Shown here: positions 27,224 through 52,515 of the stretch, in pieces | Layout of the letters: every line of letters starts with the position of its first letter | Position numbering within the stretch: the first letter of the stretch is position 1 | Translations under genes and position numbers: made by a program | From: Promethearchaeia archaeon | GTDB lineage: Archaea > Asgardarchaeota > Lokiarchaeia > Sigyniarchaeales > SOKP01 | Length of the DNA stretch: 64,000 nt | Assembly (NCBI GenBank): GCA_029856045.1 | Contig: JAHQWG010000047.1 | Span: 1-64,000 of the forward strand | Direction of reading: 5' to 3' | Notes under the pieces: model-generated | The model's input: the letters and a program-made list of their open reading frames with translations, nothing else | Database searches by the model: none | Told to the model about the DNA's origin: nothing

Positions 27224-30163
27224 TTGGCTCAACCCAAAAAGAAAGGTAAAAAGGAAACGAGGAAAGTGAGAGAACAGGTATCTCTTTCTTCATTTATTGA
27301 AAAAAAAAAACCTAAAAAAGGAATTATTGAAGAAGAACAGCCGCAAATAGTTACCAAAGAACAAATCGAAAGGGAAATTCTAGGGATAAAGGAACCGTTA
27401 AAAATTGTTGAAAAAAAAGAGCTCGATGTTGTAGAACCTTGGGAAAAAGTTTCACAAAAAGAAGCATTAGGAGAGATTCCTAGAAATTTATATTATAAAC
27501 TTAAATCCACTAATTTTGGATTACTTGAAAAAAACACTCAATTCAAAAAGAAGGAAAGAGAATCTCCAGAAGCTGCTTATGTTAGGTTTTTAATTGAAAA
27601 TAGAATAATTACCACGAATTTAGAAAATGGGGTTTTACTAGATGTTGATTATGATGGAGGGCAAAATAAGGCATACTGTAAATTTTATGATTTAGAATCA
27701 AAGGAGATTAAAATTTGGATTGACACAACTGGTCATACACCTTACTGTTTAAGTAAAAGAAGCAAAAATGAACTTGATAACGATATTGATCTAACGAATT
27801 TCGATGGATTTGTAAGAAATGAGACAGTTAAACGATATGATTTATTACTTGATAAGGAAATTGATATGACAAAAGTCTACGGAAAAACACCCACAAGTAT
27901 CGGTGCTCGAGGAAAAGCTATAAGGGATATTTTAGGTAAAGAAAATGCTTGGGAAGCTGATATTAGATATCATCAAAATTATATTTATGATGAGGGATTA
28001 ATACCAGGATTGATTTATGAAATAAAAAATAATAAATTAATTAAAAAAGATTTTAGCGGAAGTACAAAGGAGACAATTGAAAGAGCGAAAGAACTTTCAG
28101 ATATCTTTAAAGATGAGAGTAAAGCACTAAAAGATTTTGCTAATAGGTATCTTGAGATTTTTAATACGCCCATTATTGATTTAAAAAGGGTTGCGATTGA
28201 TATCGAAATATATATGAATCCTGATGAGAAGAGAATACCAGATGCAAGTAAATCTAAAAACAGTATTATTAGTATATCTTTTGTTGGGATAGATGGATTA
28301 AAAAAGGTCTATGTATTAGAAAGAGAAGGTTTTTCAATGGGAGAAAGAATTCAGGATACTCCCAATGACTTGGAAATTGTATTTTTTAAGGATGAAAAGG
28401 ATTTGTTGATAGAAACTTTTCGAATCTTGTGGAAATATCCCGTAATTATAACATTCAATGGTGATAATTTTGATCTTAATTATTTATTCCATAGAGCAAA
28501 AAAGCTTAAAATTCCTGAACTATTAAATCCTATTCTTGTTAGAGCCGGATTTGGACCTATGCGGAACGCTGAATGTAATTTAAAGAAAGGATTACATATT
28601 GATTTATATAGCTTTTTTTCAAATCGGAGTATTAAAGGTTATGCTTTTGGAGGGGCATATGAAAGAAACTCTTTAGATTTGATAACTACAGCTTTATTAG
28701 GTGAAGGAAAATATAAGCATGAGGTAGAGATACATGAAATGCAATACAATAAATTAATCTATTATAATTATAAAGATTCTGAAATTACATTGGAATTAAC
28801 AAGGTTCAATGATTCAGTAGTGATGAACCTTATTACTATCCTTTTGAGAATGACAAAAATGCCTCTTCATGATTTAATTCGACACCAAATTTCTGCTTGG
28901 ATAAAAAATATATTTTTTTTTGAACATAGGGAAAAAGATTATCTAATCCCAAGAAGATCTGAAATAAGTGAATTAAAAAAGGGAGGGACATCGAAGTCAA
29001 TAATTGAAGGGAAAGGATTTCAAGGTGCTTTAGTTATAGATCCTGTTCCTGGCATACATTACAATGTGGTTGTATTAGATTTTGCTAGTCTGTATCCTTC
29101 GATTATAAAAGAATATAACTTATCTTACGAAACAGTTCAGTGTCCCCATGAAACTTGTAAAGATAATTTAATAAAAGGAATTTCTTATCACGTTTGCAAT
29201 AAAAGAACCGGCATATTTTCTTATGTAACTGGATTTTTCAGAGATGTTAGAGTTAAATATTTTAAACCAAAATCATCGGATAAAACCATACCACAAAAAC
29301 AGAGAAATATATACCAAGTTTTACAACAAGCACTAAAAGTGTTTATTAATGGTTCATATGGTGTATTTGGAAGTCCAAATTTCCCCTTATTTTGTTTGCC
29401 AGTTGCTGAAAGCACAACAGGTATTGGTCGATATTCGATTCAATCTGCAGCAAAGAAAGCGGAAACCCTCGATATTCAGGTTCTTTACGGCGATACTGAC
29501 TCAATTTTCTTAAAAAGTCCAACAAAGAGCCAATTAAATGAAATTTCTAATTGGAGTAAAGATGAATTGGATTTAGATTTAGAAGAAGAAAAAACTTATC
29601 AATTTTTAGCATTATCAAAACGAAAAAAGAATTATATAGGAGTATATGCAGATACAAAAACTATTGATATTAAAGGGATGACTGCTAAAAAGAGCAATAC
29701 TCCTAACTTTATTAAGAAGACTTTTGGTCAATTAACGGAAATATTAAGAGAGATTACTAATAACGAAGAATTTGATAAATCGCGCCAAAAAATTATTGAT
29801 ATTATCAGAAAAGATCGAAATGCAATTGGGAAAAAGAATGGATTTACTTTAGATGATTATATGATCTCTTTAGAATTACAAAGATCATTGGATAAATATA
29901 TCAAAACAACTCCTCAACACGTAAAAGCTGCACGAATCCTAAAAAATGTTACTAAAAAAGAACTACAAGAGAGAGATATAGTTTCATTTGTTAAAACAAG
30001 AGATAGTGAAGGAGTTAAACCATTAGAATTAGCCAAACTCGAAGATATTGATGGGAAAGCGTATAAAAATTTGTTAAAAAGTGCAGTTGAACAACTTCTT
30101 GACGCATTAGGCATATCTTATGAAGAAATTAGAGGAATAAAGAAAATGGATTCCTTTTTTTAA
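27224..30163 (+). CDS. polB: Family B DNA polymerase (catalytically intact)
   Basis: Exo I VAIDIEIY, Exo II FNGDNFDLNYL, Exo III YNYKDSEITLEL, motif A DFASLYPSII, motif B KVFINGSYGVFG, motif C YGDTDS. N-terminal K/E-rich extension of about 115 aa. C-terminal KKMDSFF is PIP-like. Confidence 0.9.
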   Translation: MAQPKKKGKKETRKVREQVSLSSFIEKKKPKKGIIEEEQPQIVTKEQIEREILGIKEPLKIVEKKELDVVEPWEKVSQKEALGEIPRNLYYKLKSTNFGLLEKNTQFKKKERESPEAAYVRFLIENRIITTNLENGVLLDVDYDGGQNKAYCKFYDLESKEIKIWIDTTGHTPYCLSKRSKNELDNDIDLTNFDGFVRNETVKRYDLLLDKEIDMTKVYGKTPTSIGARGKAIRDILGKENAWEADIRYHQNYIYDEGLIPGLIYEIKNNKLIKKDFSGSTKETIERAKELSDIFKDESKALKDFANRYLEIFNTPIIDLKRVAIDIEIYMNPDEKRIPDASKSKNSIISISFVGIDGLKKVYVLEREGFSMGERIQDTPNDLEIVFFKDEKDLLIETFRILWKYPVIITFNGDNFDLNYLFHRAKKLKIPELLNPILVRAGFGPMRNAECNLKKGLHIDLYSFFSNRSIKGYAFGGAYERNSLDLITTALLGEGKYKHEVEIHEMQYNKLIYYNYKDSEITLELTRFNDSVVMNLITILLRMTKMPLHDLIRHQISAWIKNIFFFEHREKDYLIPRRSEISELKKGGTSKSIIEGKGFQGALVIDPVPGIHYNVVVLDFASLYPSIIKEYNLSYETVQCPHETCKDNLIKGISYHVCNKRTGIFSYVTGFFRDVRVKYFKPKSSDKTIPQKQRNIYQVLQQALKVFINGSYGVFGSPNFPLFCLPVAESTTGIGRYSIQSAAKKAETLDIQVLYGDTDSIFLKSPTKSQLNEISNWSKDELDLDLEEEKTYQFLALSKRKKNYIGVYADTKTIDIKGMTAKKSNTPNFIKKTFGQLTEILREITNNEEFDKSRQKIIDIIRKDRNAIGKKNGFTLDDYMISLELQRSLDKYIKTTPQHVKAARILKNVTKKELQERDIVSFVKTRDSEGVKPLELAKLEDIDGKAYKNLLKSAVEQLLDALGISYEEIRGIKKMDSFF

Positions 30164-47850: not shown

Positions 47851-48174
47851 ATTATTAACTGCAAGAACATTCCCAAAATTTTTTGTAAGGTTTTGGGTCC
47901 TTATAGCATAACTTTCAGTAATTTTTGACCACCTTATTTTTTTTTGATTTTTTGGTAATTTAATTTAATTTATAATTATAAAGCACTCTGTGATATATAA
48001 GGCTTTGCATCCCAAAGTCATTTGCAATTATTAATTTTTTTATTAAAATATTTACTTCCTTTCTAACGTCCAAAATTAGGGCGTAAAAATATTTATCATA
48101 AAAAAGAAACAAGATTTTCAGAATTAAAACGAAAATTTAAATAAAATGATAAAAAATGGCATTTTATTAAAGAA

Positions 48175-48371
48175 ACTTAAACAAAATTCAGAAGAGTCTC
48201 TTGGAATTTTTTTTTTTCATTTCTCGATTTTATTGAATTTTCCAGATCTGACAATTCAAAGGGGAAGATATTTTCAAATGCACGAGTTAGGAGTTCTTTA
48301 TATTTTTTCTTATCATATTGATGTTTTTTGGAGTCGTACAATTCTGTGAGGATCATTTTTTTATACGCCAT
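48175..48371. repeat. Direct repeat copy A (about 195 bp, about 85% identical) of the PolB2 3'-end coding region at 49082-49278. Retains a 64-aa ORF (48177..48371, minus strand)
   Basis: DNA alignment by eye. Encoded MAYKKMILTELYDSKKHQYDKKKYKELLTRAFENIFPFELSDLENSIKSRNEKKKFQETLLNFV versus the PolB2 C-terminus AHKKVILSELYNPKKHQYDKEKYKELLTRAFKNIIPFELPDLENSIKSRNEERKLQKTLLNFA. Confidence 0.8.
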
Positions 48372-48373
48372 AT

Positions 48374-49027
48374 TTAATTGAATGTTTTAATTAGCCTGAC
48401 ATAATATATTATTATTAATGTTATTAAAAAACTGAAGAAAATAAGGATAAACGGATAAAAAATAAAAAAAAATAATATTGGGAAATATTCTAGCTGATAG
48501 AAACGAAAAATTTGTAATAAGAATACATAAAGAACAACTATTAATAAAAAAATTCCAATGTTTACTCTTCTTTGATATTTATTATAGCATTTTTTACAAT
48601 AATAGCCCTTAGTTGAAAAAAATGTTTTGGGTTTAATGAATTGTCTATTTTTATTCCTAAATATTTCGTTAGAAATAATAACTCCGCAACCTCTACAAAA
48701 TGTTTCATTTCCTAATTCTATGTGAACTTTATTGCTTACATTTCTATAATAACGGATGTGATATATTGATGCATTCTTTCTCATAAAATATGATAAAAGG
48801 AACTTAATGATACAGAGTAAACAGACGGAAATCCATAAAAAATCTACTACAACTCTAGGATCATACATAATAAAGTTAAAACTCTCAAGATGAATAAAAA
48901 GAATTAAACAACCTAATATAGTCAATATAGTATAGAGAATAAAAGCAAGAATTGGTTCAGATGAACCATATTTTTGTTGGGGAATTTCTTTAAATTTTTG
49001 GACTTCCTGAATTTCAATTTTTTGCAT
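48374..49027 (-). CDS. Membrane protein with a CxxC...CxxC zinc-ribbon, bracketed by the PolB 3'-end duplication
   Basis: 217 aa. TM helices at both ends, central CRGCGV...CKKCYNK. Confidence 0.4.
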   Translation of the reverse strand: MQKIEIQEVQKFKEIPQQKYGSSEPILAFILYTILTILGCLILFIHLESFNFIMYDPRVVVDFLWISVCLLCIIKFLLSYFMRKNASIYHIRYYRNVSNKVHIELGNETFCRGCGVIISNEIFRNKNRQFIKPKTFFSTKGYYCKKCYNKYQRRVNIGIFLLIVVLYVFLLQIFRFYQLEYFPILFFFIFYPFILIFFSFLITLIIIYYVRLIKTFN

Positions 49028-49081
49028 AGCTCACATTCTTTTTAGTAAATAGGCTATTTAATAATTAGCATTCTTAACAAA

Positions 49082-51475
49082 TTAAGCAAAATTCAACAGC
49101 GTCTTTTGAAGTTTTCTTTCTTCATTTCTCGATTTTATTGAATTTTCCAAATCTGGCAATTCAAAGGGGATGATATTTTTAAATGCACGAGTTAGGAGTT
49201 CTTTATATTTCTCCTTATCATATTGATGTTTTTTTGGGTTGTACAGTTCCGAAAGGATTACTTTCTTATGTGCTGAACCTGGGTCAGCTTCAGCGTTTGT
49301 AATGATAAATTTTACTTTTTGACCCGCAGACACTGGCACCCCTGCCTTCTCCTTTTGGTTAGCAGCAACTGCTTGATATGAATTTACTTTGTACTGCGAA
49401 GGTTTTCGGGAAACTCTTATTATGACGCTAAGCTCTTCAGTCGTTACATTTCCACTATCAATTTTATCTAAATAATGATATAAAACGCGTTTTGCTTCAG
49501 GGATCTTTGACAAAAATTGTTCTTTGGTTTTCACATTCAAAAAGACATTAATCATTGCCTTCTGTGCCTCTTTCACGATTCTTGGTGTATCTCTGCGTCT
49601 AATATCAATTCCTCTCAGTTTAGTTGTCCCATCGACTCTTACCCCCCAGTAATGATTGAGTGTAGGTATTTTTGGATTCGCACGAGAGGGCATGAATACA
49701 ATGAAATTATATATTCCTTCAATATTAATTGGAATTTTTGTTGCTTCTTCTATTCTTTTGCAAATTTCTTCGCAATCTTTACTAAATTGCTCACTTGAGG
49801 TACCTTTTTTATTTTCTATGAATAGGGAGTCTACAATGCCGTGAATTATTTTATAGCCATATTCACGAGCAATTTCTGCCGATTGCAGTAAGAACTCACG
49901 AGAATACGCACAAACAGTTTGATGCGCCTCTATTCGCCCAAATCGTGAATTCTTGAATCCCAAATATCCAAATGAAACAACGAGTATCCATTTTAACGCT
50001 TTCTGCATATATTTGTACTTAATATCTCCAGTCTCTTTCGCGATTCGTTTGTATACTAATCTTTTTCTCAAAGGAATCTCAATTGATTTTGAAACAATAC
50101 CCCGTCGTTTCTTACAGATATGAAAGTTCAATCCCGGAACTTGAATTGCTGAAGGATCATCTTTGCAACATTTACAATTGAGGGTTTCGGGTGAGATATT
50201 ATATATACTCATTAATGAGGGGTACATTGAAGCAAAATCTAATTCAGCAACATTATTAAACACTCCGATCTTTGGCTCAAAGATATGCCCACCCCTATCT
50301 GCTAAAATTAAATCGAGAGCTGTTTTGAAGTCTTCTGCATTACTTTTTAAAGGTGGAATAAGAATATCCGACTGATAAGCGTTATAGAATTGAATTGATT
50401 GTAGGGCGCCACCAATTGTAACTCGGGTAAGTCGTTGTATTGGAACTCGGGACACTCGCGCAACTTCAAGGACCCCTGGTATGTTGCCATCGATGAAATG
50501 AAGGCTTCCGTAGGCTGAAGAGTCCAAATGAAATCGACCAGTTAAATAACATTGGGTTTGCGAACGACGATATATGATCCCGTAGGAAAAAAAATGGTCC
50601 TCACCATTTAACTTGAATATTCCGCTCTTAAGGGGAGTTTTAGTCCGAGAGAGATAAAATCTTCTTGTAATTCGATTTGTTGAAGCCCGGGCAACTAAAT
50701 AGGGCATTCCAAATTCGTCACCCCTTGTTGTAAGAATAATATCTGGATCAATTCTTTCGATAGTTCGGACTATCTCCAACAAATTTTCCTCCTCGTCACC
50801 ATTATCAATAAGTATGGTTCTTCTAATCGGAGAATCGGCTCTAGGCATGTCTGCCTTTCTTTCATTCTCGACAATTCCTATTTCCGCGTATGCCATTGGC
50901 TCATTGAATTGTGGTTTCAAACCCTTCTGCTGGACTTTGATCTCCAACCAAACCGCCCTCAAGGGAGGCGTCTCATAAAACAAATCTTCGTTGTTATCCT
51001 TTAACTCATAAGAGAGCAAATACATTTCATTATTTTCACCCAAACTCACTGAAAAGCAACACAAAGCCATTGGAAAGAGACTATTCACGTAGAAATACAT
51101 TTGAGCAATTGGAATGTCAGTATTATATAACGTGAAATAATCAAGTTTTTCGATATCTTTTATTGTAGATTTAAATACAGAAGGCTTTTTTACTGACACC
51201 CCAAAAATCATCCTTTTTTCGCAATCGTCAATCGAGACATACTTACTGCAAAGTCTTGCTCTGACAATATTTGGGTGGGATTTGAGGATCTGCTTCAGCC
51301 TTGGAAAATCGCTTCCAAATCGCCCTTTTTTTGGAACTGCGAAAAATTCTGGCTGAAACTCAGATTTAATCTGAACTACTTGGTTTTCTTTTTTTGTTTT
51401 GACCCATAAAATAATCCCACTTGCATATGTGGTGACGTCCAATATCCATCCGTAGAAGTTCTTTATCTCAGTCAT
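49082..51475 (-). CDS. Family B DNA polymerase paralog with degenerate exonuclease and motif-C residues (PolB2-like)
   Basis: Motif A DFASMYPSLM is intact. Exo I changed to WLEI, Exo II FD changed to FG (RGDEFGMPYL), motif B KWILVVSFGYLG (N changed to V), motif C HGIVDS instead of YGDTDS. Confidence 0.8.
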   Translation of the reverse strand: MTEIKNFYGWILDVTTYASGIILWVKTKKENQVVQIKSEFQPEFFAVPKKGRFGSDFPRLKQILKSHPNIVRARLCSKYVSIDDCEKRMIFGVSVKKPSVFKSTIKDIEKLDYFTLYNTDIPIAQMYFYVNSLFPMALCCFSVSLGENNEMYLLSYELKDNNEDLFYETPPLRAVWLEIKVQQKGLKPQFNEPMAYAEIGIVENERKADMPRADSPIRRTILIDNGDEEENLLEIVRTIERIDPDIILTTRGDEFGMPYLVARASTNRITRRFYLSRTKTPLKSGIFKLNGEDHFFSYGIIYRRSQTQCYLTGRFHLDSSAYGSLHFIDGNIPGVLEVARVSRVPIQRLTRVTIGGALQSIQFYNAYQSDILIPPLKSNAEDFKTALDLILADRGGHIFEPKIGVFNNVAELDFASMYPSLMSIYNISPETLNCKCCKDDPSAIQVPGLNFHICKKRRGIVSKSIEIPLRKRLVYKRIAKETGDIKYKYMQKALKWILVVSFGYLGFKNSRFGRIEAHQTVCAYSREFLLQSAEIAREYGYKIIHGIVDSLFIENKKGTSSEQFSKDCEEICKRIEEATKIPINIEGIYNFIVFMPSRANPKIPTLNHYWGVRVDGTTKLRGIDIRRRDTPRIVKEAQKAMINVFLNVKTKEQFLSKIPEAKRVLYHYLDKIDSGNVTTEELSVIIRVSRKPSQYKVNSYQAVAANQKEKAGVPVSAGQKVKFIITNAEADPGSAHKKVILSELYNPKKHQYDKEKYKELLTRAFKNIIPFELPDLENSIKSRNEERKLQKTLLNFA

Positions 51476-51732
51476 TTACTTTTTTCCAATTCGCTTATTC
51501 TTTTTTCTAATTCCTCAATTCTTTTCTCTTGTTCAAGTGCTACTGAGAAAAAGAGAAATTCAGATAACACAGGTCTAGCTGCCATACTCCCAGCATCAGC
51601 ATGAATTCGAGCGTGATCCATTACTTGATCGAAAAATTTTCTCTCTTCAGGGCTTAGAGCCCTTTTGAAATCTTTCCAGCTCTCAATCTCCATTTCAAGC
51701 GCTGGACGGAAAGACGGAACTGTTCTACCCAA
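51472..51732 (-). CDS. Hypothetical small protein, translationally coupled (4-bp overlap) to PolB2
   Basis: 86 aa. C-terminal coiled-coil EQEKRIEELEKRISELEKSK. Confidence 0.4.
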   Translation of the reverse strand: MGRTVPSFRPALEMEIESWKDFKRALSPEERKFFDQVMDHARIHADAGSMAARPVLSEFLFFSVALEQEKRIEELEKRISELEKSK

Positions 51733-51765
51733 TTATTTCACCTCAATTTTTATTTTAGCTTGGTT

Positions 51766-52515
51766 TTAGGAAAACCAAAAATCTAATGTCGTATTTTTTA
51801 AGGTTTTAGATCTATCTACTTTTTGCTTGCGGGCTTTCCATCTGACAACCTTTTTATTAGGCAAGTATGGATGTTGGATTAGTCGATACTCAGTAAAGCG
51901 ATCCTCATCGTTAATCAGAACTAATACATTTGCGAAATGAGAGAGTATATTACCCCCCTTTACTCGAACATAAGAATATTCATGAAGTGGTGCCGTTAGA
52001 ATAACCAATGATTTCGTTTTTTGTGCGACTTTCTTTATGCCATTTATAGCCCTTGATAAGTCTTCAAATGTACTTTGTTCATAATTCCCAAATAGCTTGG
52101 TTATTCCAGAAACCAGAACCATTCTTATATCATCAATCTTTAATAACTTATTCTCTAAGATTTCGACCATTTGAGGCCATGTGAATGCCCGAGAGATCAA
52201 AATATTGCCTAACACTAATGAAGGACTTAATCGCATTGATAAGGCTAGAGTACTTATTTTATAGGGACTGAATCTATTTGTTGCATCGATGTAGGCGATT
52301 CTCCCACCGAGACCGTCATCAAGAAATCTTTTTTGAAAACTTACCGCCGTCGAATGCAAAATATCATTTGTGATTTTTTTGGAGCCATATAGTAAATATA
52401 TTAATTCTTTGTGAAATCCTCCTTGTAATAATTCATCTAGTTTAGAATCCCCACTCGGAATTAAAGGATATTTGCTGTTTTCTTTGTGATATGCGTAGCC
52501 TGAAAGCAACTCCAT
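51766..52515 (-). CDS. RecA-superfamily RadB-like protein with degenerate Walker A/B (probably non-catalytic)
   Basis: IPSGDSKLDELLQGGFHKELIYLLYGSKKIT parallels RadA/RadB (STGSK.LD.LLGGG...G..GSGKT), but the P-loop is YGSKKIT and no Walker B aspartate is evident. Confidence 0.5.
   Translation of the reverse strand: MELLSGYAYHKENSKYPLIPSGDSKLDELLQGGFHKELIYLLYGSKKITNDILHSTAVSFQKRFLDDGLGGRIAYIDATNRFSPYKISTLALSMRLSPSLVLGNILISRAFTWPQMVEILENKLLKIDDIRMVLVSGITKLFGNYEQSTFEDLSRAINGIKKVAQKTKSLVILTAPLHEYSYVRVKGGNILSHFANVLVLINDEDRFTEYRLIQHPYLPNKKVVRWKARKQKVDRSKTLKNTTLDFWFS

Follow-up and report, generated by a model that had tools for sequence, protein, structure and literature searches.

Background

The archaeal family-B DNA polymerase PolB2 has been linked in the literature since 2013/2014 to an inactivated RadA-family protein and to the small protein arCOG07300 (PMC4104785). 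Makarova, Krupovic and Koonin (2014) found polB2 in predicted operons with genes of these two kinds in many archaea and some bacteria, and described arCOG07300 as an alpha-helical protein of about 90 amino acids (PMC4104785). Timinskas, Timinskas and Venclovas (2025) renamed the two partners iRadA and PPB2 and classified the gene orders; class 1a, iRadA-PPB2-PolB2, is represented in their tables by examples from Lokiarchaeota and Heimdallarchaeota (PMC11791011). Here we describe such a trio in an Asgard archaeon (Promethearchaeia archaeon, assembly GCA_029856045.1), within a stretch of 64,000 nucleotides (contig JAHQWG010000047.1, positions 1 to 64,000) that is referred to below as the window.

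In the 2025 study, one PolB2, one iRadA and three PPB2 chains were assembled in an AlphaFold model as a heteropentamer, and signatures were given for each subunit (PMC11791011). In PolB2 the exonuclease site is inactive, most members have a substitution at the first Asp of the motif C DxD, and a beta-alpha segment that resembles the Rad51 oligomerization segment, and binds iRadA in the model, precedes a D(K/R) motif. The N-terminal arm of PPB2 is marked by 'MGRT' and by Arg3 and Arg9, and iRadA is devoid of the N-terminal domain and of the ATPase residues (PMC11791011). In Sulfolobus islandicus, PolB2 (Dpo2) is the sole damage-inducible polymerase and is needed for damage-induced mutagenesis (PMC7390963, PMC11791011). 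Purified Sulfolobus Dpo2 is a robust polymerase with no 3'-5' exonuclease, poor at insertion opposite lesions and efficient in the extension of mismatched or lesion-opposed termini; the alignment in the same biochemical study includes a Thorarchaeota sequence named 'AsgardPolB2' (PMC8764526).

Organization of the operon

The three genes in the window are co-oriented open reading frames (ORFs) on the minus strand, confirmed in the ORF list at the coordinates given in Table 1, and their order is that of class 1a. The iRadA gene, whose end reads ...FWFS-TAA, is separated from PPB2 by a spacer of 33 nt, and the stop of PPB2 overlaps the start of polB2 by 4 nt (ATGA). The first-pass annotation of this DNA had reported the minus-strand trio, a 33-bp spacer, an 86-amino-acid ORF and a 4-bp overlap, all of which are confirmed here, and the coupling that it proposed between the co-oriented genes is borne out at the translational level by the ATGA overlap. 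It had also held that such an arrangement was undescribed. This is not the case, as the iRadA-PPB2-PolB2 operon has been published (PMC4104785, PMC11791011) and Lokiarchaeota examples are catalogued; the trio is an Asgard copy of that operon. The 2-kb bin 50001..52000, which spans the 5' half of polB2, PPB2 and part of iRadA, has the highest G+C content of the whole window (0.379, versus an average of about 0.31).

The PolB2 polymerase

The 797-amino-acid protein matches the Pfam families DNA_pol_B (2.7e-33) and DNA_pol_B_exo1 (9e-10). In a BLASTP comparison it is 36% identical over 222 amino acids (E = 5e-47) to S. islandicus Dpo2, the sequence of which was taken from the supplement of PMC11791011, and in an alignment it is 24% identical to the window's own intact PolB. 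Its best NCBIfam models are NF004416 and NF004418, whereas the intact PolB is named by NF004417. More than 1200 homologues are found in the databases, the top matches being proteins of about 800 amino acids from Promethearchaeota/Lokiarchaeia, Thor-, Hermod-, Hod- and Odinarchaeota with around 60% identity. Judged by its sequence, the protein is thus a PolB2 (Dpo2-type) polymerase, nearer to the characterized PolB2 than to other archaeal PolB groups.

The proofreading domain is recognizable and its motifs are disrupted. At Exo I, alignment to the window PolB and to Asgard sequences gives E178-I-K180 in place of DIE, so that the catalytic Glu is replaced by Lys; the first acidic residue survives, as Glu in the window PolB2 and as Asp in other Asgards. 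At Exo II, alignment with Pyrococcus furiosus PolB and the window PolB gives RGDEFG in place of NGDNFD, with Gly256 at the position of the catalytic Asp, and the YxxxD segment of Exo III is deleted in the alignment. The loss of the Exo I and Exo II catalytic Asp residues claimed previously therefore stands for Exo II and has to be corrected for Exo I, where the first acidic position is still occupied by Glu. Glu178 itself is not seen in three other Asgard PolB2 sequences of the same alignment, which have D-I-K there.

In the polymerase domain, Asp413 of motif A is kept with respect to both P. furiosus PolB and the window PolB. Motif B reads KWILVVSFG in place of KxxxNGSYG (N to V, Y to F), and motif C reads HGIVDS in place of YGDTDS, with I547-V-D549 at the DxD position. 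The retained motif A and the HGIVDS substitution had both been noticed in the first reading and are seen in the alignments, which also demonstrate that the degeneration is real and that the polymerase does not retain all of its catalytic residues. In an alignment of 14 Asgard PolB2 sequences, HGIVDS, Asp413, Asp549, Lys495, Phe383, D393-R394, Gln790 and Phe796 are all invariant. Alignment with Dpo2 places DK253-254 of S. islandicus at D393-R394 and its 401-IID-403 at I547-V-D549; the two proteins also have the derived motif B, KWILVxSFGYLG, in common. The segment F383xxA386 lies upstream of D393-R394 and, from its sequence motif, is a predicted iRadA contact. Furthermore, the Lokiarchaeota entry for motif C in the supplement of PMC11791011 (HGIVDSMWL/IVD) matches the window PolB2.

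The window encodes a second family-B polymerase at 27224..30163, which had been called fully intact. This is correct: every motif is present, and NF004417 scores 948 bits against a cut-off of 780. The intact PolB has a Lys/Glu-rich N-terminal extension of around 100 amino acids ahead of the conserved domains (27224..27530) and ends in KKMDSFF, a canonical tail resembling a PCNA-interacting peptide (PIP).

The inactive RadA homologue iRadA

The 249-amino-acid protein matches Pfam Rad51 (7.7e-15) and covers the RadA ATPase core alone, aligning with residues 103-337 of full-length P. furiosus RadA (1pzn) and with isolated core constructs. Its AlphaFold2 model has a predicted local distance difference test (pLDDT) score of 82, and the top Foldseek matches in PDB are RAD51, Dmc1 and RadA (E = 4e-18, TM-score about 0.75). 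Structure prediction, which had been proposed as a check on this gene product, thus returns a RAD51/Dmc1/RadA core fold.

Both ATPase motifs have been lost. Walker A, GEFGSGKT in P. furiosus RadA, corresponds to YGSKKI-T with no GK[ST], and Walker B, LLIVDS in P. furiosus RadA, corresponds to MVLVSG, with Ser136 in place of the Asp. In alignments of orthologues the Asgard consensus at the Walker A position is LLYGDxx, and Ser136 is conserved in at least 90% of the Asgard iRadA sequences. The Walker A box is intact in RadA/RadB-type recombinases. The protein had earlier been called RadB-like, with a degenerate P-loop and no Walker B; the loss of the two motifs is upheld, and the RadB identity is rejected, since its scores are 38.9 bits on TIGR02237 (cut-off 172.4) and 21 on NF006861 (cut-off 278), and there is no GKT. 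RadA/Rad51 models give the protein higher scores than RadB models do. The label of KaiC-like ATPase was also considered and rejected on family scores, motifs, the ratio of nonsynonymous to synonymous substitution rates (dN/dS) and conservation. With the Lokiarchaeota iRadA of the model in PMC11791011, the window protein shares 57% identity.

The small partner PPB2

The N-terminus of the 86-amino-acid protein, MGRTVPSFR, contains the 'MGRT' motif together with Arg3 and Arg9 of the published definition (PMC11791011), and the protein is 70% identical to the Lokiarchaeota PPB2 of that study. A precomputed match to PF26485 (DUF8156) exists for the exact 86-amino-acid product, and the same family is matched in 120 of 120 PPB2 homologues among the matches listed. 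Our own Pfam and NCBIfam scans of the protein returned no match, in the case of Pfam because PF26485 was absent from the set scanned.

The first 13 residues of PPB2 are nearly invariant in Asgard lineages, and the segment GRTVPSFRPALE is essentially invariant across 78 Asgard orthologues taken from genome contigs. GRT, Phe8 and Arg9 are found in all 78 of the Asgard PPB2 sequences extracted, and Met1 to Thr4, Phe8 and Arg9 are invariant in two PPB2 alignments. The AlphaFold2 model (pLDDT 80) consists of helices 9-17, 20-25, 28-46 and 52-85, the long C-terminal one being compatible in the model with a coiled coil. When the Asgard PPB2 profile was compared with S. islandicus PPB2, the two aligned only over the N-terminal arm of 23 residues (hhalign E = 5.8e-5).

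The start codons of PPB2 are varied. The codon before the invariant GRT is TTG in the window and in loci L001 and L068 of the genome scan described below, and GTG in L067. At the same position there is ATA in L013, L015, L055, L070 and L079, and ATC in L011. A GGTG element also lies ahead of PPB2 starts in other Asgard loci, and because the ATA and ATC codons follow such a Shine-Dalgarno-like element by 5-8 nt, the sequences suggest non-canonical initiation of PPB2. In eight loci the ATG is followed by an additional residue before GRT: M-C-GRT (ATG-TGT) in seven (L026, L031, L039, L056, L062, L066 and L072) and M-V-GRT (ATG-GTC) in L048.

PIP-like tails

Of 56 Asgard iRadA sequences, 55 end in a PIP-like tail of the form KN..[LI]D.W followed by a hydrophobic residue, and 72 of 79 Asgard PolB2 sequences end in one of the form Q..[LIM]..[FYW] followed by a hydrophobic residue. 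In the wider family, a C-terminal clamp-binding motif is found in iRadA, less often in PolB2, and only infrequently in both proteins of one organism (PMC11791011). The conserved ends of iRadA (KNTTLDFWF) and PolB2 (QKTLLNFA) suggest that the two Asgard proteins are tethered to PCNA.

Conservation, synteny and selection among Asgard archaea

A genome scan that used a single genome of each species gave 80 Asgard loci. In 78 of these PPB2 is the gene immediately upstream of PolB2, and contig ends truncate the remaining two. A near-full-length iRadA was found in 55 loci; in 53 of these it is upstream, on the same strand and within 5 kb, and in the remaining two it is downstream on the opposite strand. 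The survey of synteny in relatives that had been called for in the first reading thus indicates co-conservation of the genes. The PPB2 of the Lokiarchaeota trio modelled in PMC11791011 is identical to that of L052.

The gap between iRadA and PPB2 spans 37 nt to 4.8 kb across the loci with an upstream iRadA. The tight operon of three genes, common to the window, L001, L052 and L065, is a minority state among the Asgards.

Based on comparison with L001, the closest genome (96% amino-acid identity), dN/dS is 0.04 for iRadA, 0.10 for PPB2 and 0.09 for PolB2. All three genes are therefore under strong purifying selection and none of them is decaying. The reading of the trio as pseudogenes was considered and rejected on the same kinds of evidence as for the KaiC label.

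In most Asgards the gap measures 0.6-4.8 kb and contains variable, unrelated genes on the opposite strand (loci L003-L080; for example, 982..5713 in L010 and 3473..5709 in L006). A Cys-rich DUF3795 protein is encoded there in 37 loci and an amidohydrolase in 24, and genes for membrane proteins also occur. In its behaviour the gap resembles an insertion hot spot. One of the loci, L045 (DATKTW010000160.1), is labelled 'Candidatus Nanopelagicaceae bacterium', an actinomycetotal metagenome-assembled genome (MAG), and carries an Asgard-type trio with 57-69% identity to that of the window; this is probably an Asgard contig that was binned wrongly.

Table 1. Coordinates of the genes, motifs and adjoining features in the window
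Feature	Position	Strand	Remarks
iRadA: inactive Rad51/RadA-core protein, without N-terminal helix-hairpin-helix (HhH) domain	51766..52515	-	249 amino acids
PPB2 (arCOG07300 / DUF8156, PF26485): helical PolB2 partner	51472..51732	-	86 amino acids, TTG start
PolB2: Dpo2-type family-B polymerase, exonuclease domain inactivated	49082..51475	-	797 amino acids
iRadA degenerate Walker A, Y43-G-S-K-K-I-T49	52369..52389	-	alignment to P. furiosus RadA
iRadA degenerate Walker B, M132-V-L-V-S136	52108..52122	-	alignment to P. furiosus RadA
iRadA C-terminal PIP-like tail, K-N-T-T-L-D-F-W-F	51772..51798	-	Asgard conservation
Shine-Dalgarno-like GAGGTGA, 5 nt upstream of PPB2 TTG	51738..51744	-	read in sequence
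PolB2 Exo I position, E178-I-K180, versus D-I-E	50936..50944	-	alignment
PolB2 Exo II position, R251-G-D-E-F-G256-M-P-Y-L, versus N-G-D-x-F-D-x-x-Y-L	50696..50725	-	alignment
PolB2 F383-K-T-A386 FxxA-like segment and D393-R394 'D(K/R)' motif	50294..50329	-	predicted iRadA / PPB2-arm contact region
PolB2 motif A catalytic Asp413, retained	50237..50239	-	alignments
PolB2 motif C, H545-G-I-V-D-S550	49826..49843	-	first Asp of DxD is Ile, second Asp kept
PolB2 C-terminal PIP-like tail, Q790-K-T-L-L-N-F-A797	49085..49108	-	Asgard conservation
orf217: lineage-specific membrane and Cys-rich ORF, outside the conserved system	48374..49027	-	217 amino acids
Second copy of the last 191 bp of polB2 (source 49079..49269), 86% identical	48174..48364	-	self-blastn
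orf64: 64-amino-acid open frame over the second polB2 3'-end copy	48177..48371	-	ORF list

Proposed function and alternatives

The identity of the three genes, their signature motifs, their linkage and the purifying selection on them are established directly. By homology with Sulfolobus, we consider it probable (roughly 0.85) that the locus encodes the three subunits of the archaeal PolB2 'mutasome', an extender complex for damage tolerance. A translesion or damage-response unit was among the options of the first-pass annotation, and it is the function that the literature supports. PolB2, with its dead proofreading domain and without the first Asp of motif C, would still be an active polymerase. 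Since it carries the same active-site substitutions as the active Dpo2, the best-supported role for it would be that of a proofreading-free extender acting with an iRadA monomer and a PPB2 trimer. PPB2, a small helical protein, is predicted to form this trimer and to insert its MGRT arm between PolB2 and iRadA, close to the DNA. The Rad51-core protein iRadA would be unable to bind or hydrolyse ATP and is predicted to be gripped by PolB2 through the FxxA-type segment that resembles the Rad51 oligomerization element, and the PIP-like tails of iRadA and PolB2 may tether the complex to PCNA. After damage, the complex would extend primer termini that are mismatched or lie opposite a lesion and are unusable for the replicative PolB, and damage tolerance would be gained with mutations as its price. 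For the Asgards, the heteropentamer architecture and the tethering to PCNA are taken from the AlphaFold models of PMC11791011, and we infer from the Sulfolobus proteins that the Asgard ones behave alike in activity and damage induction.

Several points weigh against this assignment. The expected activity, damage induction and complex formation of the Asgard proteins are extrapolated from the Sulfolobales and from AlphaFold models. The Asgard iRadA profile has no significant similarity to S. islandicus iRadA, and that of PPB2 resembles its S. islandicus counterpart only in the arm of 23 residues, so that the orthology of the Asgard iRadA and PPB2 rests on context, motifs and the family-wide analysis of PMC11791011. 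In most Asgard genomes iRadA lies outside the PPB2-PolB2 transcription unit, because genes on the opposite strand intervene. No Orc1/Cdc6, SRAP or DUF72 gene is found among those flanking genes of the window that were checked.

The polymerase might alternatively be catalytically dead and the trio a purely structural or regulatory complex, with binding to stalled forks or modulation of the replicative PolB as examples of its task. Rogozin 2008 and Makarova 2014 originally read PolB2 in this way (PMC4104785), and the loss of the first Asp of motif C, the changed motif B and the disruption of all exonuclease motifs are in line with it. However, the Dpo2 proteins of S. islandicus and Saccharolobus solfataricus have the same motif B and C substitutions and are robustly active (PMC8764526), so that the terms 'inactivated' and 'pseudo' previously applied to the window polymerase are not justified, and the invariance of Asp413, Asp549 and Lys495 in Asgard orthologues fits a retained active site. 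A dead polymerase thus seems improbable. A still smaller chance attaches to a role in replication initiation or origin regulation instead of damage tolerance, an idea of Makarova 2014 that draws on the enrichment of arORC2 (Orc1/Cdc6) genes near polB2 in many archaea (PMC4104785, PMC11791011); the missing Orc1/Cdc6 gene among the flanking genes checked here speaks against it, as does the fact that the linked Orc1-2 of Sulfolobus is a regulator of the DNA-damage response and no initiator (PMC6061795, PMC11791011).

The remaining proposal, already made in the first reading, is that the three genes are what remains of a self-replicating mobile element. Archaeal mobile elements commonly carry family-B polymerases (PMC4104785), the 3' end of polB2 has a small insertion accompanied by a duplication of 191 bp, and the local G+C content (0.38) exceeds the window average of about 0.31. 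On the other hand, the neighbours show no integrase, Cas1, terminal protein or inverted-repeat hallmark, although terminal inverted repeats were not searched for systematically; PPB2-PolB2 is kept in 78 of 80 Asgard chromosomal loci with around 60% identity across phyla and low dN/dS; and the 797-amino-acid protein groups with cellular PolB2, while the ORF inserted beside it has no viral relative. We regard this origin as the least probable of all, and the conservation of the trio in Asgard chromosomal contexts, together with the neighbourhood free of integrase, Cas1 or similar genes, largely refutes the claim of a remnant.

Within the extender-complex reading, it is conceivable, and on balance doubtful, that the Asgard PolB2 complexes form a distinct sub-variant of the mutasome, with dual PIP-like tails, a full-length, folded and inactive exonuclease domain, and an iRadA that is mostly transcribed separately. 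If so, the dual tails would permit two-point docking on the PCNA trimer. As Asgards are the archaeal lineage closest to eukaryotes, a more speculative idea is that the system could have a connection with how the eukaryotic extender polymerases acting with Rad51 paralogues arose, or with the inactive module of Pol epsilon; a link between that inactive polymerase module and PolB2 is a hypothesis of Makarova 2014 (PMC4104785). In PDB, the sequence matches of the window PolB2 favour neither Pol epsilon nor Pol zeta in particular.

The value of the present analysis lies in annotation: the genes should be named iRadA, PPB2 and PolB2 (translesion extender complex), and not hypothetical, RadB-like or pseudo-polymerase. 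It has little weight as a discovery, for the operon type, its components, the signature motifs and Lokiarchaeota examples are already published; only the PIP-like tails on both subunits, the frequent uncoupling of iRadA and the 3'-end duplication are mildly new. The system is strongly conserved among Asgards, and because PolB2 keeps around 60% identity and the PPB2 N-terminus is nearly invariant across their lineages, cultured Asgard archaea would be a reasonable second system, after the Sulfolobales, for tests of the predicted heteropentamer and of how it employs PCNA.

Surroundings of the operon and the duplicated end of polB2

The flanking genes encode an ABC transporter, a HAD hydrolase, acyltransferases in tandem and a CoA-enzyme activase. 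No Rfam family was detected within 47-54 kb and no tRNA within 45-56 kb.

The last 191 bp of polB2 are present as an 86%-identical direct repeat that flanks orf217 (48174..49269). The second copy is still open as a frame of 64 amino acids, and dN/dS between the copies is 0.22. The product of orf217 is a membrane protein rich in CxxC motifs, for which no Pfam or NCBIfam match was found. The insertion is present in L002 and in L081-L086, which represent the window species in several metagenomes, and is absent from the 96%-identical L001; every exact copy of orf217 is in the same context. As a possible gene of a mobile element, orf217 was compared with viral proteins, and no viral relative was found. 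The insertion and its flanking repeat have the appearance of a Campbell-type integration by single crossover or of a tandem duplication.

Comparison with known systems

The class 1a operons of Lokiarchaeota and Heimdallarchaeota (PMC11791011) share with the window the gene order, the orientation, motif C (HGIVDS/IVD), the PPB2 N-terminus MGRTVP(S/A)FRPALE and the iRadA end KNxTLDxWF. The window differs from them in that it belongs to another species, the nearest public genome being the MAG CSMAG_2237 with 96% amino-acid identity, and in having Glu for Asp at Exo I, the 217-amino-acid ORF and the duplicated 3' end of polB2.

The system of S. islandicus and S. solfataricus agrees with the window in the derived motif B, in having Ile at the first Asp position of motif C, in the D(K/R) motif and in its inactive exonuclease; its PPB2 also bears the MGRT arm, and a RadA homologue without activity is linked to it. 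In contrast, the Sulfolobus gene order is PPB2-PolB2-iRadA (class 3a), and the Dpo2 exonuclease domain is reported to be absent or far more diverged (PMC8764526), whereas the PolB2 of the window keeps a recognizable exo1 domain. Sulfolobus iRadA is too diverged for significant similarity to its Asgard counterpart, and the likeness between the PPB2 proteins is confined to the N-terminal arm.

RadB, the euryarchaeal RadA paralogue, is likewise a short RadA core without the N-terminal domain, but the window iRadA is without the Walker A and B residues. The Escherichia coli Pol V mutasome (UmuD'2C-RecA) is a functional analogue of the PolB2 complex in lacking proofreading and in having a RecA/Rad51-family partner, small accessory subunits and clamp binding, and eukaryotic Pol zeta is one in lacking proofreading and in its small accessory subunits, extender role and clamp binding (PMC11791011). 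Pol V differs in its Y-family catalytic subunit and its active, ATP-bound RecA, and Pol zeta in its accessory subunits Rev7, Pol31 and Pol32. Both are homologous to the PolB2 complex only at the level of family B or of the RecA superfamily, and the comparison is thus one of function and makes no claim of membership.

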